Assembly: GCA_046330455.1 (NCBI GenBank)
Contig: JAXLSU010000002.1
Location: 297,837-329,836 of the forward strand
DNA: 32,000 bases
DNA from: Gaiellales bacterium
GTDB lineage: Bacteria > Actinomycetota > Thermoleophilia > Gaiellales > Gaiellaceae
Reading direction: 5' to 3'
Part shown: positions 8,701-30,784 of the stretch, one piece after another
Layout of the letters: every line of letters starts with the position of its first letter
Position numbering within the stretch: the stretch's first letter is position 1
Program-made: the position numbers and the translations under genes
Notes under the pieces: generated by a model
Told to the model about the DNA's origin: nothing
Database searches by the model: none
Seen by the model: the letters and a program-made list of their open reading frames with translations, nothing else

Positions 8701-8769
8701 CACGTCCTTCGCAAAGCTTCCAGGGCGCGCAACCAGCCCGACCACATCCCACCGGTATAACGAAGCCTC

Positions 8770-11003: not shown

Positions 11004-11006
11004 CGA

Positions 11007-13013: not shown

Positions 13014-13549
13014 GGGGTCACCTCGAACGTGCGAACCATCACGTGATGCCCGACACCGCAGAACTCGAGGCAGGCGAAGACGTAGGTGCCGGGCCTCTCG
13101 AGCGTCAGGCTGAGTCGATTCTCGTAGCCGGGCATCGCCTGGACGTTGCCGATCAGCACCCCGTCCGGGTCGTAGAGGCCGAGACCGTGATTGACGTCGG
13201 TGGCAGTCACGTCGAAGACGACCTCCGTGCCGGCCGGGACCCGATCGGGCTTCACGCTCCAGTTGAACTGGTAACCCGATACCTCCACCGTCATGGCCTG
13301 GTTGGCGGCCTGCCCGTACGGCCTGAAGGCGATCGACAGGGCGACCCCGGTTCCGAGCAGGACGACGAGGAAGATGAGCCAGACCAGCCTCAGGCGGTAG
13401 CCGGTGCGGGTCACGGCGCCGTACTCGACGTTCCGCCGCGCCTGCCACGCGACCGCTCCGAAGATGGCGAGCAGGCAGCCCGAGACCACGAGGAAGCCGA
13501 TCAGGACCGCTATCTGAAAGCCGCCGAAGCTGAGATCCATCCTGCCCAT
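13010..13549 (-). CDS. Heme-copper oxidase subunit II (cupredoxin, CuA site)
   Basis: Two N-terminal TM helices, then a cupredoxin domain with the CuA ligand pattern VNHGLG ... CLEFCGVGHHVM (H...CxExCGxxHxxM). Confidence 0.85.
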   Translation of the reverse strand: MGRMDLSFGGFQIAVLIGFLVVSGCLLAIFGAVAWQARRNVEYGAVTRTGYRLRLVWLIFLVVLLGTGVALSIAFRPYGQAANQAMTVEVSGYQFNWSVKPDRVPAGTEVVFDVTATDVNHGLGLYDPDGVLIGNVQAMPGYENRLSLTLERPGTYVFACLEFCGVGHHVMVRTFEVTP

Positions 13550-13835
13550 GAGTGCTCCCTGCGCCAGTCACCTGGCGGAGACGTTAGTCCTCCCGGGAAG
13601 GACGCTACCAGGATTTCATCCAATAGAGATCGTAACAAACGGTATAACCACAGATTCTCCAGATCGTCGGGTCTCGGCACCCGGTGGGGCTCGTGGAGGG
13701 GCGGGATCTGCCCCCTCCTCCACCCGGCGCCGATCCGGACGAGCGCGCCGGTACCTACCCGGACGGCGACCGCCCAGCCCTCCGGTGCGGCCCCTGCGCC
13801 GAGGCCCGGCAGGGCCGCGCCGTCAGCCACGTCGA

Positions 13836-13882
13836 CCGCTGCGCGGCGCCTCCGGCGCTTGCGAGGGGGCGTACGCGCCCCC
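13836..13882. repeat. Degenerate inverted copy of the first 28 nt of the 47-bp repeat, plus an adjacent GC hairpin
   Basis: The reverse complement of 13836-13863 is cgcaagcgccggaggcgccgcgcagcgg, compared with gcaaggcgccgaaggcgccgcgcagcgg at 9726-9753. The final 15 nt are identical. 13865-13882 (gggggcgtacgcgccccc) forms a 7-bp stem with a 4-nt loop. Confidence 0.55.
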
Positions 13883-14138
13883 GCAGCCGCAGAGCAGATC
13901 GAACAGGCCACTCCAGCGCACGGCGTAAGGGGCCATGGCCAGCCGGGTGAATAGGGAAACCATGGTGGACGCGGCGTGACCGGGAACGAACCACCGGTAG
14001 CTCGCAAACCGTGCGAACGGCCGGTCAGAGATCTCCACACGACGCTCCCGCCCGCCAGCGGGACGAAGGGCGGTCGCCTCTGCCATCCGAGCCTCGTGGC
14101 GATCCGAGACGGCAATCGCGCCGGAAAGGAGACCTGCA

Positions 14139-14762
14139 ATGCGTAGGAACGTGCTGCTGACGGGGTGCTGCCTGGCCGTGCTCGTCCTGGTCGCTGCCTG
14201 TGCCACCGCCCGGTCCGACACGGCTCAGACGGGCGAGCCGGCGACAGCGGCGGTAACGGAGCCGGGGCCCGCCGAGCAGGCGACGATCGAGGAGCCGGCG
14301 ACCCGGGAGGAGGAGCCGACGGAACCGGAGGAGAGCGTCAGCCAGCAGAACGCCCGCGAGAGCGCCGAGTCATACCTCGAGCTCGCGGGCTTCTCGCGCA
14401 AGGGGCTGATCGGGCAACTCGTCTACGAGGGCTACTCGAAGGCCGATGCCCGCTACGCGGTGGACGCCATCGATCCCGACTGGAGGGAGCACGCCGTCAG
14501 GAGCGCGACGAGCTACCTCGAGACCGGCGCGTTCTCGCGCAAGGGGCTGATCGGGCAGCTCGTCTACGAGGGTTACTCGAAAGCTGACGCCGGCCACGCC
14601 GCGGACACCGTCGACCCCGACTGGAACGAGCAGGCCGCCAGGAGCGCCAAGAGCTACCTCGACTACGGCTCGTTCTCGCGGCAGGGGCTGATCGACCAGC
14701 TCATCTACGAGGGCTTCACGCAGGCCCAGGCAGAGTACGGCGTCGACAAGGTCGGGCTGTGA
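14139..14762 (+). CDS. Lipoprotein with three tandem Ltp-family (host cell surface-exposed lipoprotein) repeats
   Basis: Lipobox signal MRRNVLLTGCCLAVLVLVAAC. Three 47-aa (141-nt) repeats follow, of the form A..SA.SYL....FSR.GLI.QL.YEG(Y/F)....A.Y.VD. The marker ttctcgcg recurs at 14391, 14532 and 14673. Confidence 0.8.
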   Translation: MRRNVLLTGCCLAVLVLVAACATARSDTAQTGEPATAAVTEPGPAEQATIEEPATREEEPTEPEESVSQQNARESAESYLELAGFSRKGLIGQLVYEGYSKADARYAVDAIDPDWREHAVRSATSYLETGAFSRKGLIGQLVYEGYSKADAGHAADTVDPDWNEQAARSAKSYLDYGSFSRQGLIDQLIYEGFTQAQAEYGVDKVGL

Positions 14763-14801: not shown

Positions 14802-14874
14802 TGGGCCCGCCTGGATTCGAACCAGGGACCGACGGATTATGAGTCCGCTGCTCTGACCGCTGAGCTACGGGCCC
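14802..14874 (-). tRNA. tRNA with CAT anticodon (elongator Met, or Ile2 if lysidine-modified)
   Basis: Minus strand reads GGGCCCG TA GCTC AGCGGTCA GAGC A GCGGA CTCATAA TCCGT CGGTC CCTGG TTCGAAT CCAGG CGGGCCC A. This folds by hand into a full 73-nt cloverleaf. CCA is not encoded. It lacks the initiator features. Confidence 0.9.
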
Positions 14875-15481: not shown

Positions 15482-15551
15482 CCCGGGGCAGCGTCGGGTC
15501 ACTTGCCGGCGCAAAGACGCGGAAGGCCCCGTGTCTGCAGGGCCTCGGTAG

Positions 15552-15624
15552 CTCCCCGGGCTGGACTCGAACCAGCAACCCTCCGGTTAACAGCCGGATG
15601 CTCTGCCAATTGAGCTACCGGGGA
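15552..15624 (-). tRNA. tRNA-Asn (GTT)
   Basis: Minus strand reads TCCCCGG TA GCTC AATTGGCA GAGC A TCCGG CTGTTAA CCGGA GGGTT GCTGG TTCGAGT CCAGC CCGGGGA G. This is a complete 73-nt cloverleaf. CCA is not encoded. Confidence 0.92.
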
Positions 15625-15658: not shown

Positions 15659-17305
15659 TCAGGTGAGCTCGTGCAGCGCGGCGTGCACGCGCTCGAGCGC
15701 CTGCTGGAGCTCCTTCGTCTGCGCGAGGGCGGCGCCCGCGAGCTTCTTGCGCAGGAACCGCTCCCGAAGCCGCAGGAGTAGCTCTCTGGCCGCCCGCTCG
15801 TCGATCGCCTCCGCCGTCGCGAGCGCGTCGAGCTCGGCCTCGAACCGGGCGAGCTCCTCGTCGGCTGCCCCGTTCTGGCCGACGAGACGCGACCGCATCC
15901 GCCTGTGGAGCTCCGACTCGAAGTGCTCGGGCGTGATCTCGGCGAGGATCCGGACGAGGTCACGGTGGGCGAGCACGCCGGCGAGCACGCCGCGCTCGAG
16001 CCGGTCGCGGGCCTCGAGGGCCTTTCGCGAGACGGCACCGGTCGATCGGGACGCCCTCGGCGCCAGAGCCGCCTGGAGATCACGCGGCAGGTCGAGGCGG
16101 TCGGCCGCGTACTCGACGGCCTCCATCCACTCCGTGTTCTGATCGAAGCTCGCCATCACCTCGCGCAGCCGCTGGAAGGCGACCTCGCGGCTCGGCGCCC
16201 GGTCGATCTCGAGCTTCACGCGGTGGCGGGGATAGGACTCCGCCCGTTCGAGGCGCTCGGCGAAGCCCTCGGCCGCGTCGGCCGGGTCTGTGCCCTGCGG
16301 AAGCAAGACGATCCGCACCTCGTCGAACTGGCGGTACGCGAGCTCCATGCCCCGAAGCGTCGCCGTCTCACCGGCCTTGTCGGCATCGAAGCAGAGAAAC
16401 AGGCGCGAGCAGAGGCGCCGCAACTCCCGGAGCTGGCGCTCGGTGAGCGCCGTGCCCATCGCGGCGACGGCGGTCGTCAACCCGGCCTGGTGGAGCGCGA
16501 GCACGTCCGTGTAGCCCTCGACGACCAGTGCCCTGTCGTCCTTTGCGATCGTCGCACGGGCGCGGTCGAGCCCGTACACGATCGCGCTCTTCTGGAAGAG
16601 CTCGGTCTCCTGCGTGTTCACGTACTTGCCGCGGAGCGGATCGTCGTCTCGGAGACGGCGCGCCCCGAAGCCGAGCACGCGGCCACGGGCATCGGCGAGC
16701 GGAAAGATCAGCCGGGCCCCGAAGGCGTCGTTGCCCCGCCGATTCACGAGCCCGGCCGCGGCGAGCTCGTCAGGCGCGTACCCCTTCTCGCGCGCCTTGC
16801 GAGGTAGCACCTCCCCGCCCGGCGAGAGCCCGAGCCTGAACGCACGACACGTCTCCTCCCGGAGCCCACGCCCGGCGAGGTACGCGCGCACCGGCTCGCC
16901 CGCGGGCGAGTCCCACAGGTAGCGCTCGTAGTAGCGGGCGGCATCTTCGAGCAGCGAGAGCAGGCGCTCGCGGCGCTCGCGGTCGCCAGCACTCCGTCCC
17001 GCACCCTGCTCGTACTCGAGCGTGACGCGGTAGCGCTCCGCAAGCGTTTCGACCGCCTCCACGAAGTCGAGGCCCTCCGTCTCGCGCACGAACGAGAAGA
17101 CGTCGCCTCCCTTCTGGCAGCCGAAGCAGTAGTACGTCCCGCGCTCGGGGCTGACCGAGAAGCTCGGCGTGCGCTCGTCGTGGAACGGGCAGCGCCCGAC
17201 GAACCGCGATCCGACCCGGCGAAGCTGGACGCGCGAGCCGACGATCTCGACGATGTCGGCGGCCGCGCGCACCGCCTCGATCGACGTGTCGCGGATCAGC
17301 GCCAT
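15659..17305 (-). CDS. dnaG: DNA primase
   Basis: MALIRDTSIEAVRAAADIVEIVG...GRCPFHDERTPSFSVSPERGTYYCFGCQKGGDVFSFV (CHC2 zinc finger). A TOPRIM region follows (LVVEGYTDVLALHQAG...CFDADKAG). Confidence 0.95.
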   Translation of the reverse strand: MALIRDTSIEAVRAAADIVEIVGSRVQLRRVGSRFVGRCPFHDERTPSFSVSPERGTYYCFGCQKGGDVFSFVRETEGLDFVEAVETLAERYRVTLEYEQGAGRSAGDRERRERLLSLLEDAARYYERYLWDSPAGEPVRAYLAGRGLREETCRAFRLGLSPGGEVLPRKAREKGYAPDELAAAGLVNRRGNDAFGARLIFPLADARGRVLGFGARRLRDDDPLRGKYVNTQETELFQKSAIVYGLDRARATIAKDDRALVVEGYTDVLALHQAGLTTAVAAMGTALTERQLRELRRLCSRLFLCFDADKAGETATLRGMELAYRQFDEVRIVLLPQGTDPADAAEGFAERLERAESYPRHRVKLEIDRAPSREVAFQRLREVMASFDQNTEWMEAVEYAADRLDLPRDLQAALAPRASRSTGAVSRKALEARDRLERGVLAGVLAHRDLVRILAEITPEHFESELHRRMRSRLVGQNGAADEELARFEAELDALATAEAIDERAARELLLRLRERFLRKKLAGAALAQTKELQQALERVHAALHELT

Positions 17306-17318: not shown

Positions 17319-18329
17319 TCACCGGGGAGAGCGGCGGGAGAAGCCGAGGGCGAAGCGGTCGGTCATGCCGGCCACGTAGTCGGTGATTCGCTCCGGGAGG
17401 TCGCCCGGGCGGCCGGGTGGAAGCTCGCCCGGATTCGCGGCGAAGTGGTCGAAGATGAGGCGAACCGTGTCGGTCGCGCGGCGGCGCTCGGTCGCGGCGA
17501 CCGGTCCGAGATAGACCCGCTCGAACATGAACGCGCGCAGCTCGAGCATCGCCGGGCCGATCTCGGGGCCCTGCACGACGTCGCCGGCCGCGCTCGAGGC
17601 CTCGACGAGATCGTGTACGAGCGTGTCGATCCGCTTCGAGCTCGTCGGCCCGAGACGCTCGACCAGCTCGCCCGGCAGGTCGCCCGGGGAGAGGATCCCG
17701 GCGCGCGTCGCGTCGTCGATGTCGTGGTTCAGGTAGGCGAACCGGTCGACGATCCGCACGATCTTGCCCTCGAGCGTCGCGGGCTCGTTCGGCCCCGTGT
17801 GGTTCAGGATCCCGTCCCTCACCTCCCAGGTGAGATTCAGGCCCTGCCCGTCCTTCTCGAGCACCTCGACGACGCGCAGTGACTGCTCGTTGTGGCGGAA
17901 ATGGCGCCCGTACCGCGATGCGAGCACCTCGTCGAGCGTCTCCTCGCCGATGTGACCGAACGGCGGGTGGCCGAGGTCGTGGCCGAGCGCGATCGCCTCG
18001 GTCAGGTCCTCGTTGAGCCGGAGCGCGCGGGCGACGACGCGGGCGATGCCGGCCGCCTCGAGCGTGTGGGTGAGCCTCGTGCGGAAATGGTCGCCGCGGG
18101 GGGCGACGAACACCTGCGTCTTGTGCTTGAGGCGTCGGAACGACTTGCAGTGGACGATCCGGTCGCGGTCGCGCTGGAACGGTGTGCGCAGGCCGCATTC
18201 CTCCTCGGCGACGGCACGCCCGCGGGTCTCGTACGAGCGAACGGCGAGCGGCGACAGCGCCTCGTCTTCGAGCGCCCGGATCCGGGCCTCGAAGCCGTTC
18301 GCGACCGTGCCTGCGAGCTCGGGGGCCAT
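17319..18329 (-). CDS. dgt: dGTP triphosphohydrolase-like HD-domain protein
   Basis: From the ATG at 18329: MAPELAGT...RTPFQRDRDRIVHCKSFRRLKHKTQVF...DHFRTRLTHTLE...LGHDLGHPPFGH...DRFAYLNHDIDD. The track ORF extension to 19265 overlaps the plus-strand gene and is Arg/Pro-rich, so I reject it. The stop lies 13 nt before the dnaG start. Confidence 0.9.
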   Translation of the reverse strand: MAPELAGTVANGFEARIRALEDEALSPLAVRSYETRGRAVAEEECGLRTPFQRDRDRIVHCKSFRRLKHKTQVFVAPRGDHFRTRLTHTLEAAGIARVVARALRLNEDLTEAIALGHDLGHPPFGHIGEETLDEVLASRYGRHFRHNEQSLRVVEVLEKDGQGLNLTWEVRDGILNHTGPNEPATLEGKIVRIVDRFAYLNHDIDDATRAGILSPGDLPGELVERLGPTSSKRIDTLVHDLVEASSAAGDVVQGPEIGPAMLELRAFMFERVYLGPVAATERRRATDTVRLIFDHFAANPGELPPGRPGDLPERITDYVAGMTDRFALGFSRRSPR

Positions 18330-18434
18330 CGTGTCCTCAGCGTAGCGAGGCTCGGTCGCGGCGGAGGGGAGCGGATCGTTCGTACCGACGCCTTGCCCGC
18401 GGCGGCAGACCGTGACACGATCCGTGTGCGGCCA

Positions 18435-20714
18435 ATGGCGAGAGCACGAGCAAGCACGGAGCGGATGGCCGCCGGAGGGGAGCGGCGCGACGGCCGCTTC
18501 CGGAGGGCGCGGGCGCCCGAGGCGGGCTCCGGGCTTCCCGCGACCGCACTCGTCGCCCAGGGCCGTGCTTTCGAGGAGGAATACCGCCGGCATCCGGCAT
18601 GGCCGAGCCTGCGCCGGAGTGTCTGGGCGTGGCTCACCCTGACGGCAGTCGCCGTCGCCGCGTACGGCCTGGCGGTCGCCTACGGAAGCGGGCCGCTGCC
18701 CCACCGCATGCTCGACGCACTGAAGCTGTTTCCGAGCGGGTTTCCCGGGTACGACGAGTCGATGCCCTGGCCGCACCTGCTGGCTCGCTACCTCGCGGCC
18801 CTCGTCTCGCTGTTCGTGACGCTCCGCGTGCTCGCGGCGGTGTTCGCGGACAGGTTCGCCCAGCTGCGAGCCCGGACGCGCAGGGGGCACGCGGTCGTGT
18901 GCGGGCTCGGGGAGACCGGGCTGAGGAGCACGCTCGCACTGCGCACGGCCCGCCGCCCCGTCACGTGCATCGACCTCGCAGCCACCGGCGACGCAGCCGA
19001 TGCCGCCCGCCGCGCCGGCGCTCTCGTCCTGAAGGCCGATGCGACCCAGGTCGTGGCGCTGCGGACGGCCCGGGTCGACCGCGCTGACCAGGTCGTGTGC
19101 GCATGCGAGGCGGACGCGACGAACGCCAGGATTGCGACGACGGCACGGGCGCTCGCCGCGGGCCGCCTGCGCGACCCGCTCGACATCCACGTGTCCATTC
19201 GCGATCCGGACCTCGCCCAGGCGCTCCGGAACCCGTCCTCGGCGCTCGCGGGCGCGCGCATTCACGTGTTCAACGTCACCGCGGTCTGGGCGCGAGCGCT
19301 GCTCGACGATCCCGCGGGTCCGTTCGAGCGTGCGACTCTTTCACCGCCGCGGCTCGTCGTTGCCGGTGCAGGCCCGCTCGGGCGCGCGGTCGTGCGAGGC
19401 GCTGCGCGCCGCTGGCACGACCGGGTGCGGGACGGGACGGCCACCGGAACCATGGCGATCGTGGTCGCCGCCACGGATGCGACGGAGGCCTGCGCTCACC
19501 TCGGCGAGCGCTACCCGGCGGTCGCTCGGACGTCGAGGCTCATTCCCGCTCCGGCGGTGGCTTCTCACGGCGACACGACCGCGCCTGGCGGGCTCGAGGC
19601 TCGACCCGACGCCGTCTATCTCTGCCTGCCCGACCAGAGCGCCAACCTCGCCGCCGCGCTCGACGCCGACCGCGCGCTGCAGGGTCGGGCGCCCGTGTTC
19701 CTCCCCGCGTCGAGCGCCGTCGCCGAGCTCGGGTCGCTCGGGGTCGGCGGGCCGGGCCTCCACCCGGTGGCCCTGCCGACGCACTCGACGAGCCTCGACG
19801 TGCTCCACGACCAGAGGCGCGACGCGCTCGCCCGGTCCGTCCACGAGGAATACCTGGTCAGCCGCCAGGCCGCCGCGGACTTCGGGACGCGACCAGGCGA
19901 CCGGGACTGGGAGCTGCTGCCCGAAAGCCTGCGCGCGGCAAGTCGCGATCATGCCGACCGCATGGTCGAGCAGCTCGGGAGCCTCTGGTACGAGCTCGAG
20001 CCGCGCTACGACTGGGACGAGCCCCTCGTGGAGCTGCCCGCGCCGACGGTGGAGGCGCTGGCCGAGCTCGAGCACGAGCGGTGGCGCGCCGAGCGACACG
20101 CGGCGGGCTGGCGGCTCGGCACCGCGCGTGACGACGACCGCAAGCTCCACGACCTGCTCGTGCCCTGGACCGAGCTTCCGCAGGATGCGAAGGAGCTCGA
20201 CCGTGCGCTCGTCCGCGCCCGGCCGGAGCTGCTTGCCCGGGCGGACTACCGTCTGGGCCGGAGCCGGGTCCGGGAGCTCCTCGCGCAGCGCCTCCACGAA
20301 CGGTACGTCTCCGCTCGGCTCTCCGAGACGCCTGCTGCTGCGGTCCCTGGGTGGTCTGAGCTGCCGGAGGCACAGCGCGAGCTCAACCGGAGCTCGGTCG
20401 ACGACATCGGCGTCAAGCTGGCCCGGATCGGCTGTCGGGCCGCGCTCGCCGTCCCGTCACTGCCCGCCGCGGCGATCTCGCCGTCCGAGCTCGAGCGCCT
20501 GGCCGAGCTCGAGCACGAACGCTGGCTCGAGGAGCGGTACGCCGCGGGCTGGCGTGTCGGACCGAGAGACACAGATGCCGGTACCCACCCTTCCCTCGTT
20601 CCCTGGGCCGAGCTGTCCGAGGCAGAGCGCGAGAAGGACAGGGAGGTGGTGCGGTCGATCCAGCCGCTGCTCGCCGAGGTCGGGTACGCAGTCGTTCGTT
20701 ACGGGCTCGGTTGA
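18435..20714 (+). CDS. Membrane protein: 2 TM helices + two TrkA-N/RCK-type Rossmann domains + four tandem RyR-type repeats
   Basis: The start is taken at the ATG at 18435; the ATG at 18465, preceded by GGAG, is an alternative. Both are the first in-frame ATGs past the divergent dgt. TM helices are VWAWLTLTAVAVAAYGLAVAYG (about 18618-18686) and HLLARYLAALVSLFVTLRVLAAVF (about 18774-18845). GxGxxG motifs are VVCGLGETG (about 18903) and VVAGAGPLG (about 19362). Canonical RyR-domain signatures occur at LAELEHERWRAERHAAGWRLG...KLHDLLVPWTELPQDAKELDR and LAELEHERWLEERYAAGWRVG...THPSLVPWAELSEAEREKDREVV. Each is preceded by a degenerate copy. Confidence 0.8.
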   Translation: MARARASTERMAAGGERRDGRFRRARAPEAGSGLPATALVAQGRAFEEEYRRHPAWPSLRRSVWAWLTLTAVAVAAYGLAVAYGSGPLPHRMLDALKLFPSGFPGYDESMPWPHLLARYLAALVSLFVTLRVLAAVFADRFAQLRARTRRGHAVVCGLGETGLRSTLALRTARRPVTCIDLAATGDAADAARRAGALVLKADATQVVALRTARVDRADQVVCACEADATNARIATTARALAAGRLRDPLDIHVSIRDPDLAQALRNPSSALAGARIHVFNVTAVWARALLDDPAGPFERATLSPPRLVVAGAGPLGRAVVRGAARRWHDRVRDGTATGTMAIVVAATDATEACAHLGERYPAVARTSRLIPAPAVASHGDTTAPGGLEARPDAVYLCLPDQSANLAAALDADRALQGRAPVFLPASSAVAELGSLGVGGPGLHPVALPTHSTSLDVLHDQRRDALARSVHEEYLVSRQAAADFGTRPGDRDWELLPESLRAASRDHADRMVEQLGSLWYELEPRYDWDEPLVELPAPTVEALAELEHERWRAERHAAGWRLGTARDDDRKLHDLLVPWTELPQDAKELDRALVRARPELLARADYRLGRSRVRELLAQRLHERYVSARLSETPAAAVPGWSELPEAQRELNRSSVDDIGVKLARIGCRAALAVPSLPAAAISPSELERLAELEHERWLEERYAAGWRVGPRDTDAGTHPSLVPWAELSEAEREKDREVVRSIQPLLAEVGYAVVRYGLG

Positions 20715-20748
20715 ATCCGGGCAGCCCGAGTGGAAGAATCGACCGGCT

Positions 20749-23580
20749 GTGGCCGACGTGTTCGTCTCGTATGCCCGCGAGGACATCGACGCGGTGCGGC
20801 GGCTGCACGACGCCCTCGTCGCCCGCGGCATGGAGGTCTGGGTCGACTGGGAGGGGATCGAGCCCTCGGACCGGTGGCTCGATTCGATCCGGGAGGCGAT
20901 CGACGGCGCCGATGCCGTGGTGGCGATCGTTTCCCCGGCCTTCCTCGCTTCCGAGATCTGCGCGCTCGAATGCGAGCACGCCTCGTCGCTCAACAAGCGG
21001 CTTATCCCGATCGTCGTCGCCGAGCCGGGCGAGGGACAGCCGGTGCCTCCGTCGATCGCCGAGATCAACTGGATCTTCCTCCGCAGCTCTGACGACTTCG
21101 AGCGCGGCATCGAGGCGCTCGCGCGTGCCGTCGACACCGACATCGACCTCATCCGCACACACACCCGGGTGCTGACCCGGGCGCGCGCCTGGGAGCTGGC
21201 CGGCCGGAAACCGAGCCCCCTGCTTCGCGGCGAGGAGCTCCGCCTCGCCGAGAGCTGGCTCGCCCGCGCGGCGGCGGGCTCACAGCCCCAGCCGACCGAG
21301 CTGCAGGCCGAGTTCGTCGCTGCCAGCCGCCGCCAGACGACCAGGCGTCAACGACTCACCGTCGTGCTCAGCCTCGCCGTCGCCGTGCTCGCCGTGGGCC
21401 TGTCGGTGTTCGCCGTGCTCCAGCGCAACGAGGCCCGTGACCAGCGGCAGGAGGCACAGAAGCAGCGCGACGAGGCAAGACGCCAGGCCGACATCTCCCT
21501 GTCTCGCTCGCTCGCGGCCGAATCGCGAGCCGCGAATGCCGCCGACCAGGCGGTCCTCCTGTCGCTCGAGGCGCGCGCCGTCCGCGACACGCCCCAGGCG
21601 CGCAGCGCGACGGTCTCGGTCTCGCAGCGTCTCCGCGGTGTGGCGGCAGCCTTCTCCGGCGGCGGGGCCGCGATCGCCGACATCGACGTGTCCGGGGACG
21701 GACAGACGCTCGCCGTCGCCGCCGAGGACGGCCTGCTCGAGCTCTGGGATGTCCGGCAGCGTGCCCCTGTCACCGAGCCGGTCAACCTCGGGGACCCGCC
21801 GATCGTCGGGGTCGCCCTCGCCGGCGACGCAACGTCCGGCGTGGTTGCGACGAACACGCTCGTCCGAACGTTCACGGTGGAAGGCGGCATCCAGGCGGAC
21901 GAACCGTTCGGCTCGGAGCAGGGATTCCTCTACGACTTCGCGGTCAGCGCCGATGGGCTCCGGGCCGCGTCTGTCGGCTCGTTGTCCGGGCTCCAGGTCT
22001 TCGATCCGACCTCCGGCGAGCTGCTGTTCTCACGGCCGGCATCCGGGGCCGCGCTCCTCTCGGTGACGTTCTCCCCCGACGGGGCCGCCGTGTTCACCGG
22101 CGACAACACAGGCGCCGTCACCGGCTGGGATGCGACGACCGGCGTGCCGGTCGCAGGGACGCCGACACCCCAGTCCGGCGTCGGCATCTTCTCGCTCGCC
22201 TTCGCGCCGGATGCAAGCCTGCTGGCGGCCGGAGGCAGCGACGGAGGGATCAGGCTCGTGAGCTATCCGGCTTTCCAGTCGCTGGGCGATCCGGTGAGCA
22301 TGCATCGCTCGGGAATCCGGGACCTAGCCTTCAGCCCGGACGGGCAGACGCTCGCAACCGCCGGCGACGACGGGCAGGTGGGTCTCTGGCGCGTGTACGA
22401 GGGGTCGACCGACACCCTGAGCGGCCATCGCGGTGCCGTGAACGCCGTGGAGTTCGCGCCGGACGGCGGGATTCTCTACAGCGGGGGAGCCGACGGCACG
22501 GTGCTCGCCTGGGCGGTTCCGCGCGCCCCGCTCGTACGCTCGCTCGTGCCCGACGGCTTCGTCGAGGACGTCGCCTTCAGTCCGGACGGAAGCACGATCG
22601 CGGTCCCGGTGTATCCCGCCGACGGAGGTGGCCGGGTCGTGCGCTACGGCGTGTCGGATCTGGCCGCCGTCGGCGAGCCGCTCGTCACCGCGAGCGGATC
22701 GCCTCCCCATGTCGCTTCTGCGAAGGACGGGACGCTCGTGATCTGGACCGACGGATCCGTCGAGCTCGCGAAGCCGGGCGCCGAGGCGCCGGCACCGGTC
22801 GCGGTCGAACTCGTGTCGGAGATCAGGAGCGGCGCCGTCAGCCCCGACGGTGAGACGTTCGCCGCGGGCCTCGTGGACGGATCGATCCGGCTGGTCGATC
22901 TCACCGGCAAGGATCCGGCGGGTCGAACCCTCGCAGGCCATGCGAAGCCGGTTCAGAGCGTCGCGTTCGACGCCGCCGGCACGCGGCTCGTGTCCGGCGA
23001 CGAGGAGGGCACCCTCATCCTCTGGGATGCGAGCACCGGTGAGCAGCTGGCGACCGAACCTTCCGCCCACAGCGGCGCCGTCTACGAGGTCGCGTTCGGG
23101 CACGACGGCTCGACCCTCGCCTCCGGCGGCACGGACACGCTCATCCGGCTCTGGTCGCTCGGCGCGAACCGCTCTGAGCTGCTTCCCTCACAGGTCCTCC
23201 GCGGGCACCGAGACGACGTCACCGGGCTCGCCTTCGCTCCCGCCGGCGACCTCCTCGCCTCGACGGCGCTCGACGGATCGGTGAGGATGTGGGACGTCGG
23301 TTCCGGGCTCCCCGTCGGCGATCCGGCGCTGCAGCTCACCGCTGCGAGAGGCGTCGCGTTCAGCCCGGACGGTGGCACGCTCGCGGTCCGTACGCTCACC
23401 GACGTGCAGCTCGAGGACGTCGAGCCCTGGACGGGCGACAGCGGAGAGCTGAAGGCGGCCCTCTGCACCGTTGCCGGGAGGAATCTGACGCCGGCCGAGT
23501 TCCGGGAGTTCCTGCCGGGCCGGCCGTATCACAGGACCTGCGACATGTGGCCTGCCGGCGGGAGCGATCAGGGCTCGTAG
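20749..23580 (+). CDS. TIR domain - single TM helix - coiled coil - multi-blade WD40 repeat protein
   Basis: The GTG at 20749 is the only start codon just upstream of the TIR core in this frame. A GGAAG lies 13 nt upstream, and the gene begins 34 nt after the upstream stop. N-terminus: (M)ADVFVSYAREDIDAVRRLHDALVARGMEVWVDWEGIEPSDRW...AVVAIVSPAFLASEICALECEHA, a TIR_2-like pattern with Glu at the S..C..E position (E74, 20968-20970). TM segment LTVVLSLAVAVLAVGLSVFAVL spans 21355-21420. About 12-14 WD-like blades follow (LELWDV, VTGWDA, VGLWRV, LILWDA, IRLWSL, VRMWDV...). The 570-codon in-frame upstream extension in the track (from 19039) overlaps the RyR gene and is rejected. Confidence 0.85.
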   Translation: MADVFVSYAREDIDAVRRLHDALVARGMEVWVDWEGIEPSDRWLDSIREAIDGADAVVAIVSPAFLASEICALECEHASSLNKRLIPIVVAEPGEGQPVPPSIAEINWIFLRSSDDFERGIEALARAVDTDIDLIRTHTRVLTRARAWELAGRKPSPLLRGEELRLAESWLARAAAGSQPQPTELQAEFVAASRRQTTRRQRLTVVLSLAVAVLAVGLSVFAVLQRNEARDQRQEAQKQRDEARRQADISLSRSLAAESRAANAADQAVLLSLEARAVRDTPQARSATVSVSQRLRGVAAAFSGGGAAIADIDVSGDGQTLAVAAEDGLLELWDVRQRAPVTEPVNLGDPPIVGVALAGDATSGVVATNTLVRTFTVEGGIQADEPFGSEQGFLYDFAVSADGLRAASVGSLSGLQVFDPTSGELLFSRPASGAALLSVTFSPDGAAVFTGDNTGAVTGWDATTGVPVAGTPTPQSGVGIFSLAFAPDASLLAAGGSDGGIRLVSYPAFQSLGDPVSMHRSGIRDLAFSPDGQTLATAGDDGQVGLWRVYEGSTDTLSGHRGAVNAVEFAPDGGILYSGGADGTVLAWAVPRAPLVRSLVPDGFVEDVAFSPDGSTIAVPVYPADGGGRVVRYGVSDLAAVGEPLVTASGSPPHVASAKDGTLVIWTDGSVELAKPGAEAPAPVAVELVSEIRSGAVSPDGETFAAGLVDGSIRLVDLTGKDPAGRTLAGHAKPVQSVAFDAAGTRLVSGDEEGTLILWDASTGEQLATEPSAHSGAVYEVAFGHDGSTLASGGTDTLIRLWSLGANRSELLPSQVLRGHRDDVTGLAFAPAGDLLASTALDGSVRMWDVGSGLPVGDPALQLTAARGVAFSPDGGTLAVRTLTDVQLEDVEPWTGDSGELKAALCTVAGRNLTPAEFREFLPGRPYHRTCDMWPAGGSDQGS

Positions 23581-23815
23581 ATGCGGCCACCGCGGGCCTT
23601 CGTCACGAGTCGTGCAGACAGCGCGCCCGGCGCCGTCGCCGGCTCCGGGCTTCAGCGTGCCGGGCCCGCCCAGACGAACGCTCGCTGCGCTGCTCCTCCC
23701 CTACCCCCACTCCCTCGCTGAATGATCGGGAGCCTGGCGTCAAGATCACTTCTTGTCAGCTTCTGCACCCGGTCTCTGCTTTACAGATCGTCGAGACGGC
23801 TCGACACTCAGATAG

Positions 23816-26617
23816 ATGGCCAGCGAGGCGCCGGTCGGACTCGCCGCGGCGAGCGGCGTGGCTGCGGGCGTGGCCTCGCCCGCCGGCCGCACACGTGAGC
23901 TGGACGCCGTCCGAGCGCTGCTCGAGCCGCCTGACGGCGGGGCGGCGGCGCTCCTCCTGGACGGCGAGGCGGGAATCGGGAAGACGGTGGTCTGGGAGGC
24001 GGGCGTGGCCGGTGCCACGGAGCGTGGGCTGCTCGTCCTGACGTGCCGCCCGGCCGAGCCGGAGGGCTCGCTCGCGTTCGTGGCGCTCGCCGACCTGCTC
24101 GAGAGCGACCCGACCGTCGTCCGGGTGCTCGAGCGTCGCGGCCCGGGAGCGGACGCACTCGCCGACGGGGTGCTCCGCTTCGGCGATGCTCCTGTCGAGG
24201 AGGTGGCGATCGACCGGGCGCTCGTCGGTCTCGTCCGGGAGCTCACGGCCGACCGGCCGCTCGTGGTCGCGATCGACGACGTGCAGTGGCTCGATCCGCC
24301 GAGCGAGCGCGCGCTCGGGTTCCTCGTACGCCGGGCAGCCGGCGTGCCGTTGCGGCTCCTGCTCGCCCGCCGCTCGTCGAGAGACGAGTTGCCGCCGCTC
24401 GGGCTCGACCGCGCCGCCGTCGAGCTCACGAACCTCCGGCTCGGGCCGCTCTCGGTCGACGAGCTCGACGAGGCCGTGTGCGCACGACTCGGGATCCAGC
24501 TCCACCGACCCGCGCTCCTCCAGCTCCACCGAGCCTCCGAAGGCAACCCGTTCTACGCCCTCGAGATCGTCAAGGCCGCGATCAGCCGCTCGCCGGCGCC
24601 GTCCGCGGAGGACCTGCGCGTCCCCCCCGCGCTCGGAGACCTGCTCGCCGGAAGGATCCAGTCGCTCTCCCCGGCCGGCAGGGACGCCGTGCTCCTCGCG
24701 GCGGCGGCGACGACCCCGAGCGCAGGGCTACTCGAGCGGGCGGCCGGAACGTCCGCCGGCATGGTGGAGGCGAGCGAGACCTCGATCCTCGCCCTCGACG
24801 GGTCGCGCGTGCGCTTCACGCACCCCCTGCTCGGCTCGGTCGCCTACGAGTCTGCGCCGCCGTGGGAGCGCCGCGAGGCCCACCGTCGCCTCGCCGTCAC
24901 CGTCCGGGACCCCGTCGAGCGCGCGCTCCATCTTGCCTCCTGCACGGAGGAGCCCTCGGAGACCGTTGCCGCCGAGCTCGCGGAGGGGGCCCGGCTCGCC
25001 GCGGGACGCGGGGCGCCGGCGACCGCCGCCCGGCTCGCCGAGCACGCGCTGCGGCTCTCGCCCGAGGGGGTCTCCACAGCAGTCGAGTGGACGATCGCCG
25101 CGGCCGAGTACCACACGGCGGCGGGAGACGCCGCTCGTGCGCGCGCGTTGCTGGAGGGGCTCGTCGCCGTCCTGCCCGCGGGCCCGGAACGCGCCGGGGC
25201 TCTCTACCGTCTGGCCGACGTGGTCGGGAACGATCTCAGCCGCTCGGTCGGTCTCTGCGAGCAGGCGCTCGAGGAGGCCGGCGACTCGCCCGTGCTCGTG
25301 GCTTCCGTGCATGTGGCACTCAGCGTGTTCACCTGGCTCGCCGGCGATCTCCACGCCTCGCTCGAGCACGCCCGCGCGGCTGCGGTCGCCTCCGAGCGTG
25401 CGGGTGACGAGCGCGAGCTTGCCGTGGCGCTCGGCGGGGCGGCCCACGTCGAGGCGGTGCTCGGCGTCGGCGATCCCCGCCGGACGCTCGAGCCTGCGCT
25501 CGAGCTCGAGCGGAAGCTCGACGACTTCCCGCCGAACTCGCGACCGAGCGTCCAGCTCGGGATCGTGTGCCTCTGCACCGACGCGCTCGAGGAGGCGCGT
25601 CCCCTGCTCGAGGCCGAGCTTCGCCGGGTCAGCGCGGCCGGGGACGACGCCGCCCAGCTCGGCGCCCGCTTCCGGCTCGCCGAGCTCGAGCTCCGCGCCG
25701 GCAACCTGACGGCCGCGGCAGGCCACGCTCGCGTCCTCGAGCAGCTGGCCCGACAGGCAGGTACCGAGCAGGATCACGCGGGCACGCTCTCCCTCCGTGC
25801 CCTCGTCGACGCGCACCTCGGGTACGTCGACGTTGCGCTCAGAGGAGGGGAGCACGCGCTCGAGCTGGCCGAGGCCACGGGCGACCGTATGGTCGCGCTG
25901 CGCGCTCGCGGCGCGCTCGGCTTCGCCGAGCTCTCGCGCGGGCGTCCCCGGGAGGCGCACGCCTGGCTCGCGCCTGCGGTCGACTCGACCGAGGCGATGG
26001 GAATCCGCGAGCTCTCGATTCAGAGTGTCGTCGACAACGAGCTCGAGGCGCTCGTCGCGCTCGGCGAGCTCGAGCGGGCGGAGACGCTCGTCGAGCTGAT
26101 CGAGGAGCGCAGCCGGCCCGGCGCCCGGGCCTGGGGGCTCGCGATCGCCGCGCGCGGGCGGGCACAGCTTCGCTCGGCCCGGGGAGACGACGCCGGTGCG
26201 CGGGCCGCGCTCGCGGAGGCGTTCGCCCAGCACGACCTGCTCGACCGCCCGTTCGAGCTCGCGCGCACGCTGCTCGTCGCCGGAGCGATCGAGCGGCGCG
26301 CGAAGCGCTGGGCGGCCGCGCGCCAGCGGCTCACCGAGGCGCTCGAGCTCCTCGACGCCCTCGGCGCGCCGCTCTGGGCGGAGAAGGCGGCGAGCGAGCT
26401 GGCGCGGATCCCCGGACGCCGCCGCAGCGACGAGCTGACCGAGACGGAGCGGCGGGTGGCCGGGCTGGCGGCGGCGGGGAGATCGAACAAGGAGATCGCG
26501 GCGGCTCTGTTCGTGACGGTGCGGGCGGTCGAGGCGAACCTGACCCGGATCTACGCGAAGCTCGGGGTCCGCTCGCGTGTGGAGCTGGCGAGCCGCCTCG
26601 GGCCCGACGGCTTCTGA
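23816..26617 (+). CDS. Large ATP-binding LuxR-family (LAL / MalT-like) transcriptional regulator
   Basis: 933 aa with Walker A LLLDGEAGIGKT (23963-23986) and Walker B-like LVVAIDDVQWLD. A long Ala/Leu-rich helical-repeat (TPR-like) middle region follows. The C-terminal LuxR HTH reads LTETERRVAGLAAAGRSNKEIAAALFVTVRAVEANLTRIYAKLGV. Confidence 0.9.
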   Translation: MASEAPVGLAAASGVAAGVASPAGRTRELDAVRALLEPPDGGAAALLLDGEAGIGKTVVWEAGVAGATERGLLVLTCRPAEPEGSLAFVALADLLESDPTVVRVLERRGPGADALADGVLRFGDAPVEEVAIDRALVGLVRELTADRPLVVAIDDVQWLDPPSERALGFLVRRAAGVPLRLLLARRSSRDELPPLGLDRAAVELTNLRLGPLSVDELDEAVCARLGIQLHRPALLQLHRASEGNPFYALEIVKAAISRSPAPSAEDLRVPPALGDLLAGRIQSLSPAGRDAVLLAAAATTPSAGLLERAAGTSAGMVEASETSILALDGSRVRFTHPLLGSVAYESAPPWERREAHRRLAVTVRDPVERALHLASCTEEPSETVAAELAEGARLAAGRGAPATAARLAEHALRLSPEGVSTAVEWTIAAAEYHTAAGDAARARALLEGLVAVLPAGPERAGALYRLADVVGNDLSRSVGLCEQALEEAGDSPVLVASVHVALSVFTWLAGDLHASLEHARAAAVASERAGDERELAVALGGAAHVEAVLGVGDPRRTLEPALELERKLDDFPPNSRPSVQLGIVCLCTDALEEARPLLEAELRRVSAAGDDAAQLGARFRLAELELRAGNLTAAAGHARVLEQLARQAGTEQDHAGTLSLRALVDAHLGYVDVALRGGEHALELAEATGDRMVALRARGALGFAELSRGRPREAHAWLAPAVDSTEAMGIRELSIQSVVDNELEALVALGELERAETLVELIEERSRPGARAWGLAIAARGRAQLRSARGDDAGARAALAEAFAQHDLLDRPFELARTLLVAGAIERRAKRWAAARQRLTEALELLDALGAPLWAEKAASELARIPGRRRSDELTETERRVAGLAAAGRSNKEIAAALFVTVRAVEANLTRIYAKLGVRSRVELASRLGPDGF

Positions 26618-27029: not shown

Positions 27030-30000
27030 ATGTTCGCGTCGTTCGGGTCGGGATTCGGCCCTGGCTGCCGCTCACGGAGCCGGGCCAGGTTGCTCGCTCT
27101 GCTGATCGCGCTCGCCGCCGCGTTCCTGCTGGCGAGCGCCGGCACGGCCGGGGCGGCGCTGCCGCGTCCGGTCGGGGCGCCGGTCGCGATCGACGTGCCG
27201 TCGCCTGCGGGCGATCGCCTGTTCGACGTGAACCCGTTCCGGGCCGGTACCCAGGTACTCGCCCAGGCACTCGAGGACACCAGGACACAACAGCTCAAGC
27301 TCGTCTCCGTCTTCGACCTGAAACTGCTCGCCCAGACTCCGACGGACGGGTTCGTGCCGCGCGGGTCGCTCGGAGCGGGCTGGCGGACATTTCTCTGGGG
27401 AGAGGACGACTCGGGGCAGGCCCGCCTGTGGGCGCCCGCGTTCGACTCCGACCGCACGTTCCTCTCGCTCGACCCGCCACTCGCCTGCGACAGTGCCGCC
27501 GACGCGGCGACCCCGCTGGCCGGCCCGTTCCAGGCCGCGATCCCGGCCGGCGCGAAGCCCGGCGGGCAGATGCTCGCAAGCCCGGCGGAGGCGTTCGTGT
27601 TCGGAGACCCGGGCGATGCCGCGAAGGGCGTTCGTCGACCGCAGACGGCGCCCTGCTCGGTGTGACGAAGACCGGCGCCAATCTCGCCCGCGGCGGCTTC
27701 GGCTTCGCGGGCGCGGTCTTCGCTACGGCACCGCCGGCGGCGAGCCCACCCTCTGGACACCCGAGCTGCTCGGCAAGAGCACGAGACCCTTCCCCGGCGA
27801 TTCGTCGCTTGCCACGAGGCGCCGCCGGCCCAGGGCACGATCACGGTCTCGAAGACGCTCGTCCCGGCCGCCGATCCCGGCCGCTTCGACCTGCGGATCG
27901 ACGGGGAAGCCCACGCCGCCGGCATCGCCGACGACGGCACGACCGGCCCGATCATCGTCCCCGCCGGCGAGCACACCGTCTCCGAGACAGCCGCCGAGGG
28001 CACTGACCTCGCCGACTACACGGCCGAGATCAGCTGCACCGAGGACACGAACCCGGCCAGCCCGCTCACCGGCCCCGGCCCGCTCACGGTCACCGTCGCA
28101 GCCGGCGACGACTGGCAGTGCCGGATCACGAACACGATCGACGTCAGTCGTCTGGCCGACCTGGCCGTCAGCCCCGGCAGCGGATCACCCGGCTCACCGC
28201 TTCGGCTCGAGCCGGCGGGCGGTGTTCCGCAGGGGACGCTCACCCTGTACGTCGGCGCCGAGCAGTCTCCCGTCGTGCGGACCGGCGACGGCGTCCTGAA
28301 CGGGGTCGTGCCGATGTTTCTCGACCCCGAGACGAGCTGGTCGGCACCGCCGGCGGGGCCCGTCGACGTGATCCTGTACGCGGACGGCAGGCCCGTCGCG
28401 GGCGCCCACCATGCGCTCGCGATCACCCCGCTCGAGGAGGCGCCCGGCTCTGGCCGAGAGCGCCGTGGCGAGCCTGTCGCAGATCGCGACCTCGCTCGAT
28501 CTGCTCGCCCAACGGCTGGCAGGCGAGCCCGGCGTCGACCAGCAGTGGCTGACCAGCGGCCGGCGCACTCGACGAGCTGATCAACGGCGACAACCCGAAC
28601 TCGTTCGCGGGCGCGCTCGCCGCCGCCGACCCGCAGGCCCGGCCGCTGCTCGACGCCTGGTTTGCTTCCAGCGGCATGCTGGCCGCGCTCGAGCAGTACG
28701 AGCAGCAGCTCACCGCCCTCGCCGATGGGCTGCCCGCCGGGCCGGCCTCGCGCACCAAGGCGTCGCCTCCGCGCCCTCCAGTCGGCCGTGATCCCGATCT
28801 CGGACGCCGCGCTCGCCCACAAGATGCAGGTCTACGAGCAAGTCAAGCTGTTCGGCGAACAGGTGATCGCCGCCACCAGCTCCACCTGGAGCACGTACCT
28901 CGGCACCGCGGCGGGCGCTCTCAACCTCGTCTTCAACATCCCGGCCGCGCGCGTGCCGGCCGCGATCATCGGCGTCGTGCTCGGCCTCACCGACTTCACG
29001 CTCAACAAGATCGTGCTCGGACTGATGCCCGCACGGATCTCCAGCCTGGATCTCGCCGTCGCCAACCCGACCCCCAAGCCGGGCGAGGCGACCAACGCGA
29101 CCCTCGACCTCGAGGTCGTCAACGACCCGCCCCAGATCGGCATCCAGGACGTGACGAGCGCTCTGGCTGGCAGCCGGCGGCCTCGGCGATCTGGGCAGCG
29201 TAGACCGAAACCTCGACGTCGTCTCCTTCTTCTTGAACGCGATGCAGGCCCAGGTCGCCGGCTACGCAGCCCAGCACCCCGAGCTCAACCTCGACATCAA
29301 CACCGGCCTCGATGCCCGACAAGACCTGGCGGGCCCCGATCACCAACCGCAACTTCGTCACCCTGATGAGCGGCAACACGAGCGTGCTCGCCCCCGCTCG
29401 CCTACAACGCCGACTGGCAGGCCTCCACCCCCAGCCAGAACTGCGGCGACGACATCGACATCTGGGCGTTCACGGCCGCCAACACGTTCGGCACCCAGGC
29501 GGCCCAGTCCAACCACCTCAGCGTCCACGTCGACCCGACGAACCTCCAGGTCAGGGTCAGCCCCGGCTTCGCCGACCTGCTCCCGGGTGCCAGCAAGCAG
29601 TTCATCGTCACCGGCGCGACCAGCATCCAGTGGACCGCGACCGCCGGCACCATCGACCAGAACGGCAACTACACCGCCCCCGCCACCAAGGGCACCTACA
29701 CCGTCACCGCTACCGACACCAACAACCCGAGCTGCAAGGAACCGCAACCGTCAACGTCCGCCCCGTCGTGGTCACCCCGGCCGCGGTCTCGCTCTCCCCC
29801 GGAGACACCACCGCCTTCACCGCCACCGTCACCGGCGCTACCTCGACACTGCCGTCACATGGAGCACGAGCGGGGGCACGATCGACCAGCAGGGCAACTA
29901 CACCGCCCCTCAGAGCTCCGGTACCTACACCATCACCGCCACCAGCAACGAAGACCCCACCAGCCTCGACACCGTCACCGCCACCGTCTTCCAGGGCGGG

Positions 30001-30462: not shown

Positions 30463-30618
30463 CCGTAGGCTCTCGAGGCCCCGCTGCTCACGACGAACGC
30501 TCGGCTCGCCCGCGCGGAAGGCCACCGGGCGACGATCGTCGCGCTCGCTGAGAATCCAAGCACCTGAGCTGCGCCGCGCTGGACCCCGGCCCTGACCGTC
30601 CACGTCCACTCCAGGGTC

Positions 30619-30761
30619 GTGATCACCCCGGCCTCGGTCACGCTCTCCTCCGGAGAACGACCACCTTCACCGCCACCGTCACCGGCACCACCCGGCGGAC
30701 ATACCACGTGTCTCCCCAGCCACGATCCGCGTCAGCGCGGGCGGCGCCAGCGCCACAACCG
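30619..30761 (+). pseudogene. Internally deleted duplicate remnant of the 3' part of the upstream pseudogene
   Basis: 30619-30692 resembles 29768-29842: gtgatcaccccggcctcggtcacgctctcctccggagaacgaccaccttcaccgccaccgtcaccggcaccacc versus gtggtcaccccggccgcggtctcgctctcccccggagacaccaccgccttcaccgccaccgtcaccggcgctacc. 30720-30761 resembles 30356-30397 (ccacgatccgcgtcagc...ggcgccagcgccac). Confidence 0.6.
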
Positions 30762-30784
30762 CGGAAGCGGGTCGCGTGCGCCGC

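Follow-up and report, generated by a model that had tools for sequence, protein, structure and literature searches.

The two-gene locus

The stretch of DNA analysed here, referred to as the window, comprises 32,000 nucleotides (nt) of contig JAXLSU010000002.1 from a Gaiellales bacterium and carries two adjacent genes, one for a channel-like membrane protein with RyR domains (gene 1) and one for a TIR-domain protein with a single transmembrane (TM) helix and WD40 propellers (gene 2). Relatives of gene 1 lie beside TIR genes far above background in several phyla, and the pair may form a signalling pathway in which a product of the TIR enzyme is read by the channel-like protein. Gene 1 (18435..20714, plus strand) runs from an ATG at 18435 to a TGA at 20712-20714 and encodes 759 amino acids (aa), as supported by its open reading frame (ORF), translation, Pfam matches and AlphaFold2 (AF2) model. 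It is a 100% match to P0001, which NCBI names 'RyR domain-containing protein [Gaiellales bacterium]'; the start called by NCBI lies 10 codons later, at 18465, giving 749 aa. Gene 2 (20749..23580, plus strand) begins with a GTG at 20749 and encodes 943 aa identical to P0042, again with support from Pfam and AF2.

The two ORFs are separated by a spacer of 34 nt (20715..20748, plus strand), as reported by the first-pass annotation, which had been made from the sequence alone and had read the locus as a candidate two-gene module. The hexamer GGAAGA occupies 20733-20738, 11-16 nt ahead of the gene 2 GTG. The G+C content at third codon positions is 0.87 in gene 1 and 0.88 in gene 2, and the codon-position G+C of both is as expected of real genes. 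A scan of both strands from 18200 to 24000 found no promoter or terminator and is uninformative at the 72% G+C of the window. The four Pfam families expected from the first reading, TIR_2, WD40, TrkA_N and RyR, were all matched.

Pore region and RCK domains of gene 1

As modelled by AF2 (mean predicted local distance difference test score, pLDDT, 82.5; predicted TM-score 0.75), the gene 1 protein comprises two TM helices, a pair of Rossmann domains and, at aa 451-755, two helical RyR modules. The membrane region (18603..18842, plus strand) consists of TM1 (aa 57-83), a pore-helix-like helix and loop (aa 88-111, the short helix itself spanning aa 88-96 in the model) and TM2 (aa 112-136). The tandem Rossmann/RCK domains follow (18891..19769, plus strand), the first at aa 153-290 with the sequence GLGETG and the second at aa 306-445 with GAGPLG, as delimited by Pfam, AF2 and Foldseek; the Pfam TrkA_N match covers aa 154-266 (6e-14). 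The GxGxxG motifs start at aa 157 (nt 18903) and aa 310 (nt 19362), so that the two TM helices and two NAD-binding-type folds first proposed from the letters agree with the model, the Pfam matches and the motif positions. The motif is kept by 98/100 members of the gene 1 family, which counts 983 representatives at E<=1e-30.

When the model was compared with the Protein Data Bank (PDB) using Foldseek, the GsuK K+ channel ranked first (1.7e-8), followed by TrkA and by human RyR3 Repeat12, with the matches to GsuK and TrkA covering the tandem RCK domains; the top-matching GsuK structures were solved with nicotinamide adenine dinucleotide (NAD) and ADP. A two-TM pore followed by tandem RCK domains is the layout of RCK-gated K+ channels, and Pfam, AF2 and Foldseek agree on it for gene 1. 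In an alignment of 101 members, the pore segment mostly reads QLFvLESGxV (core LESGxV), and in the clade of the window it reads KLFPSGFPG. The canonical T[IV]GYGD K+ filter is kept by only four relatives (L008, L099, L106 and L114), of which L114 has an adjacent TIR gene. Because these four carry the filter at the segment between the TM helices, the family has the look of P-loop channels whose filter has been remodelled.

Two relatives of gene 1, P0264 (813 aa) and P0265 (816 aa), bear an N-terminal extension of ~220 aa with the motif GHR...GAD...AVWDGxPxRGxGGTAxIV. This extension, which Pfam does not match, resembles a nucleotide-binding domain of the SLOG/LOG type and may be one.

RyR modules and their ligand residues

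The C-terminal part of gene 1 matches the Pfam family RyR (PF02026) in 2 stretches (7e-28; best stretch aa 687-753), with 97.1 bits against a gathering cut-off of 27.4. Repeats were delimited with a custom repeat hidden Markov model (HMM) together with a residue check, which resolved two modules of like construction. Module 1 (19812..20246, plus strand) combines a degenerate half-repeat A (aa 463-517) with a canonical repeat B (aa 538-604; H547/W550/H572/D589), and module 2 (20265..20699, plus strand) combines a degenerate half-repeat C (aa 611-666) with a canonical repeat D (aa 684-750; H694/W697/H718/D735). The four RyR-type repeats of the first-pass annotation therefore hold for the two canonical ones only, the other two being degenerate half-repeats. 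A phmmer search of the PDB with the RyR modules returned the animal RyR Repeat12/34 and the RyR-like protein of B. thetaiotaomicron (3NRT/6UHI).

Phage proteins of the same Pfam family, described in two preprints of 2026, provide a functional reference for these modules. The mycobacteriophage protein RyDEP cleaves 2'/3' cyclic ADP-ribose (cADPR) using H75/W78/H100/D117, other phage RyDEP homologues bind 2'/3'cADPR with nanomolar affinity, and most homologues that keep these residues merely bind the signal (PMC13232231). A second phage protein, RyR Tad, binds 1''-3' glycocyclic ADP-ribose (gcADPR) with a dissociation constant of 43 nM through H129/W132, K147/H154 and K170/D171 (10.64898/2026.06.04.730250). 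The H/W/H/D tetrad of RyDEP is kept in both canonical repeats of gene 1, with spacings of +3/+25/+42 and +3/+24/+41. A phage search with the gene 1 RyR module gave only 4 weak matches, the DyoEdafos RyDEP not among them, so this comparison rests on the spacing given in PMC13232231 and on the alignment with the B. thetaiotaomicron and human RyR sequences.

Across 110 canonical repeats of the family, the first His and the Trp are invariant (110/110), the second His is kept by 56% of the repeats and the Asp by 71%, Asn standing in for the Asp in 22% (24/110). By analogy with the phage proteins, which bind or hydrolyse 2'/3'cADPR and whose ligand residues gene 1 retains, the RyR modules may read a TIR-derived ADP-ribose (ADPR) signal; the suggestion, first made from the sequence, that they might respond to an NAD-derived molecule is directly backed by this comparison.

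The TIR-TM-WD40 protein encoded by gene 2

Gene 2 opens with a TIR domain (20749..21135, plus strand; aa 1-129) matched by Pfam TIR_2 at aa 4-124 (8.5e-26), which has Glu74 at the catalytic position. Its closest solved relatives are AbTir (7UXR) and PdTIR (3H16), and when aligned with them E74 falls at the position of the catalytic Glu, as the early reading of a retained catalytic Glu had anticipated. The same residue is invariant in 30/30 TIR domains of the partners described below, and likewise in a count of 16/16. A single TM helix follows (21355..21423, plus strand; aa about 203-225, from hydropathy, strongly hydrophobic at aa 205-223), with a helical linker before it, and a WD40 beta-propeller region (21640..23421, plus strand; aa 298-890) is supported by Pfam (WD40, 7.5e-64) and by the strands of the AF2 model. 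This model has a pLDDT of 89.1 and places a helical stalk between the TM helix and the propellers.

The TM helix, which recurs as a single helix in every TIR-TM-WD40 partner, is preceded by the Arg-rich stretch RRQTTRRQR, in which R194, R200 and R202 are nearly invariant. Since the Arg cluster lies on the N-terminal side of the helix, the positive-inside rule places the TIR domain in the cytoplasm and the WD40 propellers outside, so the protein would have the topology of a Toll-like receptor in reverse order, as far as sequence alone can indicate. Close to the C-terminus stand two conserved Cys residues within the consensus ACxxxxRxLTxxEWxxYL....C.

Single-protein defence of the TIR-STAND or NLR-like kind (Avs, bNACHT) was considered for gene 2 and set aside, because no STAND NTPase stands between the TIR domain and the repeats. 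None of the 25 Pfam families listed for the protein is NACHT or AAA, and what separates TIR from WD40 is a helical stretch that includes one TM helix. The family to which gene 2 belongs is very large (1212 matches at E<=1e-20) and abundant in actinobacteria, cyanobacteria and Chloroflexi.

Linkage of TIR genes to relatives of gene 1

Gene neighbourhoods were surveyed in 118 loci with relatives of gene 1, consisting of 38 contigs at one genome per species (L001-L038) and 80 metagenome loci, none of them picked by their neighbours; the phyla represented include Actinomycetota, Gemmatimonadota and Pseudomonadota. A full-length-type relative, 25-53% identical to gene 1, is held by 100 of the 118. 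A plain tblastn search with the gene 2 TIR domain gave ~18 TIR matches, mostly weak, so a custom TIR HMM was applied to all six-frame ORFs and samples of its matches were confirmed with Pfam.

Among the full-length-type relatives, a TIR ORF is present in the locus in 34/100 and directly adjacent in 21/100; where at least 5 kb of sequence was available on both sides, a TIR gene lies within 5 kb in 12/28, and among close relatives (>=40% identity) a TIR gene is found in the locus, within ~4 kb, in 8/12. The density of TIR domains amounts to 20.1 per 100 kb at 0-500 bp from the channel gene, as against 1 in 282 kb at 5-10 kb, a proximal enrichment of ~57-fold (binomial p = 1e-10). The 18 partial relatives, which are TM+RCK-only, RyR-only or located on two truncated contigs, have 0 TIR in 261 kb (Fisher p = 0.0015); both p-values overstate certainty, because the metagenome loci are phylogenetically non-independent. 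Ten of these partial relatives match gene 1 in the TM+RCK region only and have no TIR neighbour, and since the RyR-only relatives equally have none, no special role of the RyR part follows from this control. Unbiased clustering of all ORFs within 4 kb ranks TIR/WD40 first, with 32 loci.

The order seen in the window, channel gene then adjacent TIR gene on the same strand, is the commonest (14 loci), and TIR-then-channel, divergent and convergent arrangements also occur. Two further independent contexts with a TIR and a channel gene were found in L119 and L136. The flanking genes of the window, including dnaG, dgt and the LAL-type regulator, are unmatched in L001-L038, the only set compared, so an inherited block does not explain the adjacency, and shared synteny was rejected as the cause of the pairing. 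The recurrence of the TIR neighbour on non-syntenic contigs, in several phyla and in one fused protein bears out the first-pass proposal of one functional module, and a functional link between the TIR gene and the channel-like gene is strongly supported.

Partner proteins, a natural fusion and other recurrent neighbours

The TIR partners of the channel genes are diverse. TIR-TM-WD40 proteins are found in the window and in L001, L002, L058, L069, L073, L105 and L119; the other partners are a TIR-TPR protein (L091), a TIR-NACHT protein (L067), a TIR-kinase 4.8 kb off (L134) and short TIR proteins of ~190-370 aa (204 aa in L136), among which sensor-less, ThsB-like forms of ~190-200 aa are common. 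In L100, a single ORF of 846 aa (6531-9068, plus strand) contains TIR, TM, pore loop, TM, RCK and RyR in succession (Pfam TIR_2, TrkA_N and RyR), a Rosetta-stone fusion of the two proteins. Its TIR domain keeps the catalytic Glu and has a long insert, and a second TIR ORF is located just upstream (4365-6065).

RyR domains recur in these loci outside the channel protein. In at least 11 loci the channel gene has as a neighbour the gene for a soluble P-loop NTPase-RyR protein (~870-1000 aa) whose Walker A motif lies near aa 450-550 and whose C-terminal RyR domain shows the HxxW..H..D residues; PADLOC does not match these proteins, of which examples are L052:4107-7133(+), L067:7721-10573(+), L058:4150-6768(+), L056:6622-9279(-), L098:391-3006(+) and L103:6294-9662(-). 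In L056, L058, L067 and L071 this gene lies between the TIR and channel genes, and its product may be a second RyR-sensing effector. Standalone RyR proteins of ~100-130 aa are encoded directly upstream of the channel gene at L089:9908-10276(+), L085:770-1138, L008:9962-10261, L115:86-454 and L099:348-734; these proteins (Pfam RyR at 1e-30 for that of L089) are host-encoded and resemble the phage RyDEP or sponge proteins. With NTPase-RyR and standalone RyR proteins co-occurring in these loci, RyR looks like a shared sensor in a neighbourhood of the conflict-system kind.

According to Pfam, DUF4231/SLATT, nSTAND1-TPR, nSTAND1-Sel1, DUF4062-NACHT-WD40 and DUF4062-NACHT-TPR proteins are also recurrent neighbours. 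DUF4062-NACHT proteins with WD40 or TPR stand beside relatives of gene 1 in 7 loci, for instance at L074:4749-9680(+), L061:3-5315(+), L010:11619-15413(-) and L028:2-2710(-). Neighbours that appeared to be WD40-only proved to be the C-terminal part of DUF4062-NACHT-WD40 and were not counted as TIR partners, and DUF4062 was rejected as a TIR-like domain, its probability in hhalign against the TIR alignment being 0.7%. Near some relatives of gene 1 with no directly adjacent TIR gene there is an ATP-binding cassette (ABC) transporter gene, at L134:9271-12138(-), L135:2636-5503(-), L043:1526-4165(-) and L015:14121-16235(-); in L134 and L135 the transporter has an FHA domain and its gene is convergent with the relative of gene 1.

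Genomic surroundings of the locus

The dgt-dnaG block noted upstream of the pair at the outset is confirmed by Pfam, both genes lying on the minus strand: dnaG at 15659-17305 and dgt, with HD/HD_assoc domains, at 17319-18329, gene 1 being divergent from dgt. On the other side, 235 nt downstream of gene 2, an LAL-type regulator of 933 aa with the architecture AAA_16-TPR-GerE is encoded at 23816-26617 on the plus strand; having no counterpart in the genome loci L001-L038, it is probably outside the module.

Downstream of dnaG are a tRNA-Met (14802-14874, minus strand) and a tRNA-Asn (15551-15624, minus strand), and between the tRNA calls lies an Ltp-type lipoprotein gene (14001-14762) made of 141-bp tandem repeats (14391-14715). 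A 98-nt 'tRNA-Gln' at 13996-14093 is called by ARAGORN alone, with no confirmation from Rfam. Strand composition is unusual at 29-30 kb, with a GC skew of -0.25 and an AT skew of +0.27 (29001-31000 of the window), and the AT skew reaches +0.31 across a cox1-like gene at 11-14 kb (11001-14000).

A proposed TIR-to-channel pathway and its alternatives

Building on the observed domain anatomy, residue conservation, fold similarity and gene linkage, including the fusion, we propose a Thoeris-like pathway in which a GsuK-like channel effector reads, with its RyR modules, an ADPR-type signal made by the TIR protein, a reading that we hold to be somewhat better than even, at a probability of roughly 55%. 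The model takes from the literature that bacterial TIR domains make ADP-ribose-type signals and that RyR domains bind gcADPR (PMC13232231; 10.64898/2026.06.04.730250), and from there we infer what the signal is, which way it passes, that the channel conducts ions and that the pair serves in defence. Gene 2 would both sense and signal: its WD40 propellers, which probably lie outside the membrane, would detect the trigger, as TPR or NACHT domains might do in other loci. The cytoplasmic TIR domain, through Glu74, would convert NAD+ into an ADP-ribose-derived signal, most plausibly an isomer of the 2'/3'cADPR type. The gene 1 protein would be the effector, a GsuK-like P-loop channel whose RyR pockets (H-x-x-W...H...D) bind the signal and whose gating assembly would be formed by the cytoplasmic tandem RCK domains and the two Repeat12-like RyR modules. 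Binding would open the pore, ion gradients and membrane potential would collapse, and growth arrest or abortive infection would ensue.

Several observations weigh against this pathway. TIR genes are near only about a third to 43% of the relatives of gene 1, about 57-66% of which have no TIR nearby, so the pairing is facultative, and the non-independence of the metagenome loci tempers the statistics of the linkage. Seen from the other partner, the channel gene lies beside a gene 2-like TIR in only 1/9 of the contexts inspected; together with the size of the gene 2 family, this gives substance to the initial caveat that TIR-WD40 proteins are common. A TIR protein with large sensor repeats may act as an NADase effector on its own, as in the Avs-type and TIR-STAND proteins. 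Gene 1 has no T[VI]GYG selectivity filter, its pore loop being LKLFPSGFPG, and as FPSGFPG is no known filter, ion conduction is only presumed. The catalytic dyad of RyDEP (H, D) is kept, so the RyR modules could degrade a signal rather than sense it. The window contains no recognisable defence island, with dnaG and dgt on one side and the LAL-type regulator on the other, and neither gene 1 nor its RyR neighbours are covered by a PADLOC model.

These points bear differently on the alternatives. If the pair served physiological signalling rather than anti-phage defence, gene 2 would read an envelope or extracellular cue in the style of a Toll-like receptor and control the passage of ions through the RyR-gated channel, with development, stress or cell-cell behaviour as examples of where this might serve. 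The housekeeping and regulatory genes that take the place of a defence island in the window would fit such a role, as would the single TM helix with its Arg-rich N-terminal side, which places the WD40 propellers outside, the many loci in which PADLOC finds no known defence genes, and the size of the gene 2 family in actinobacteria, cyanobacteria and Chloroflexi. Free exchange of TIR partners and shuffled gene order are, however, typical of conflict systems, the nSTAND1, NACHT and SLATT-type neighbours point the same way, and phages carry RyR-domain counter-measures to TIR signalling (PMC13232231); we regard a purely physiological role as possible, if doubtful. The retained dyad raises a different prospect, that gene 1 is a regulator whose RyR modules hydrolyse or sequester TIR products, buffering a leaky TIR or ending the signal, with the TIR protein killing by NAD+ depletion. 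The presence of the RyDEP catalytic His and Asp in both canonical repeats and of standalone RyR proteins of ~123 aa beside channel genes in several loci would suit this arrangement, and TIR proteins with big sensors are often self-contained NADases. A channel and RCK body of 450 aa would nevertheless be superfluous for a sponge or hydrolase; the repeats with Asn at the Asp position (24/110, 22%) cannot use the dyad, and H and W are still invariant in the set; short, sensor-less, ThsB-like TIR proteins of ~190-200 aa are frequent partners; and most RyDEP homologues with the conserved residues only bind the signal (PMC13232231). A regulatory role of this kind appears unlikely.

The link could also run through NAD+ itself: the TIR protein would act as an NADase effector, and gene 1 would sense through its RCK domains that NAD+/NADH is falling or ADPR rising, the RyR modules being secondary or structural. 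The best fold matches, GsuK structures with NAD and ADP, and the near-universal GxGxxG (98/100) are in keeping with this idea, which is nonetheless hard to reconcile with the invariant H and W of the RyR repeats and with the extra RyR proteins in the same loci, which point to RyR as the common sensor. The 10 TM+RCK-only loci without a TIR neighbour also speak against it, except that the RyR-only relatives likewise have none, so no part is singled out; on balance we consider it very unlikely. That two unrelated genes merely happen to be neighbours in this genome deserves next to no credence: the abundance of TIR-WD40 proteins and the single pairing among nine gene 2-like contexts would allow it, against which stand the ~57-fold proximal enrichment, the variable arrangements, the spread over several phyla and the fusion protein.

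Should the proposed TIR-to-channel pathway be correct, TIR-based immune signalling would gain RyR/PF02026 as a new sensor domain and the GsuK-like channel as a new class of effector, and phage RyR-domain sponges and glycosidases would have a host-side reason to exist. The pathway would define a large, mineable family (the 983 representatives found at E<=1e-30), and the TIR-TM-WD40 partner would be a bacterial protein with the topology of a Toll-like receptor. A simple bacterial system would also become available for the decades-old question of whether the RyR repeat, as a receptor for cADPR, gates a channel. Going further, and only tentatively, bacteria may have channels that TIR-made isomers of cyclic ADP-ribose open by way of RyR Repeat12-type sensors; such channels might be the target within the cell that RyDEP and RyR Tad of phages mimic or derive from, and a prokaryotic antecedent of the animal NAD+-cADPR-ryanodine receptor axis. 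On that view RyR would serve as a sensor of TIR signals in general, being fused to P-loop NTPases and standing alone in the same loci as well.

Comparison with known systems

PADLOC-DB 2.0 and NCBIfam 20.0 contain no model for gene 1, the NCBIfam matches being sub-threshold, and gene 2 matches the PADLOC ThsB models weakly (1.4e-8), through its TIR domain. Thoeris has been divided into types I-XI, in a survey that lists 29 effector types (Yirmiya et al., 10.64898/2025.12.03.692087). Among the membrane effectors verified there are Macro-TM (II), DUF2270 (V), DUF6650-TM (VI), SLATT (VII) and an 'ion channel' (X); in the text and the part of its tables covered here, RyR, TrkA, RCK, Rossmann and potassium are absent as effector labels, another label being possible, and ryanodine receptors figure only as the animal targets of cADPR (10.64898/2025.12.03.692087). 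Bacterial RyR-domain effectors are unmentioned in both phage RyR papers (PMC13232231; 10.64898/2026.06.04.730250), and neither RyR nor TrkA is mentioned in Kaur et al. 2020 (PMC7159879). In PADLOC, NCBIfam and the searchable literature, the TIR and RyR-channel pairing is thus undescribed, unless listed under another label, and the earlier impression that it belongs to no named system stands within this range of sources.

The locus shares with Thoeris a catalytic-Glu TIR gene beside a separate protein that joins a domain for a nucleotide signal to a membrane or killing module, and also the mixing of TIR partners and effectors between loci. It differs in that the sensor of gene 1 is RyR (PF02026), unnamed among the Thoeris effectors in the covered part of the survey, that the gene 2 TIR has its own TM helix and WD40 propellers, that the pairing occurs in only about 34-43% of family loci, and that the window lies outside any recognisable defence island and the system is known here from genes alone. 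Type X Thoeris, which pairs ThsB with the 'ion channel' ThsK (Bacillus sp. BH32, Vibrio), has TIR domains that are DUF1863-like and share a cluster with type II according to the covered part of the survey, whereas gene 2 has a TIR_2 domain that by eye, unaligned, looks like a different clade; ThsK itself was compared by description only, and a search for type X operons through their TIR in plasmids returned only type II (Macro) operons.

The phage proteins RyDEP and RyR Tad have the same PF02026 domain as gene 1, with the H-x-x-W...H...D tetrad at the same spacing, and are likewise tied functionally to TIR signalling. They are, however, small soluble dimers (RyR Tad with an additional N-terminal domain) that degrade or sequester the signal against immunity, whereas gene 1 encodes a cellular membrane protein in which tandem, pseudo-dimeric repeats are mounted on a channel and RCK body beside a TIR gene. 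With the GsuK/MthK/TrkA family, gene 1 has in common that tandem RCK domains bearing GxGxxG come after a two-TM pore-loop region, and some of its relatives keep T[IV]GYGD; it departs from that family in having FPSGFPG in place of the filter and C-terminal RyR modules, which those channels lack.

The last comparison is with the eukaryotic ryanodine receptor. In animals, cADPR is made by CD38 or by SARM1, the latter a TIR enzyme, and its binding to the animal Repeat12 has only been proposed. The cores of the two proteins are unrelated, the receptor being a giant 6-TM protein of the RyR/IP3R type and gene 1 a 2-TM protein of the GsuK-like type. The likeness is that the ryanodine receptor, too, is a cation channel that bears Repeat12/34 RyR domains and whose activity is linked to NAD+-derived cyclic ADP-ribose.

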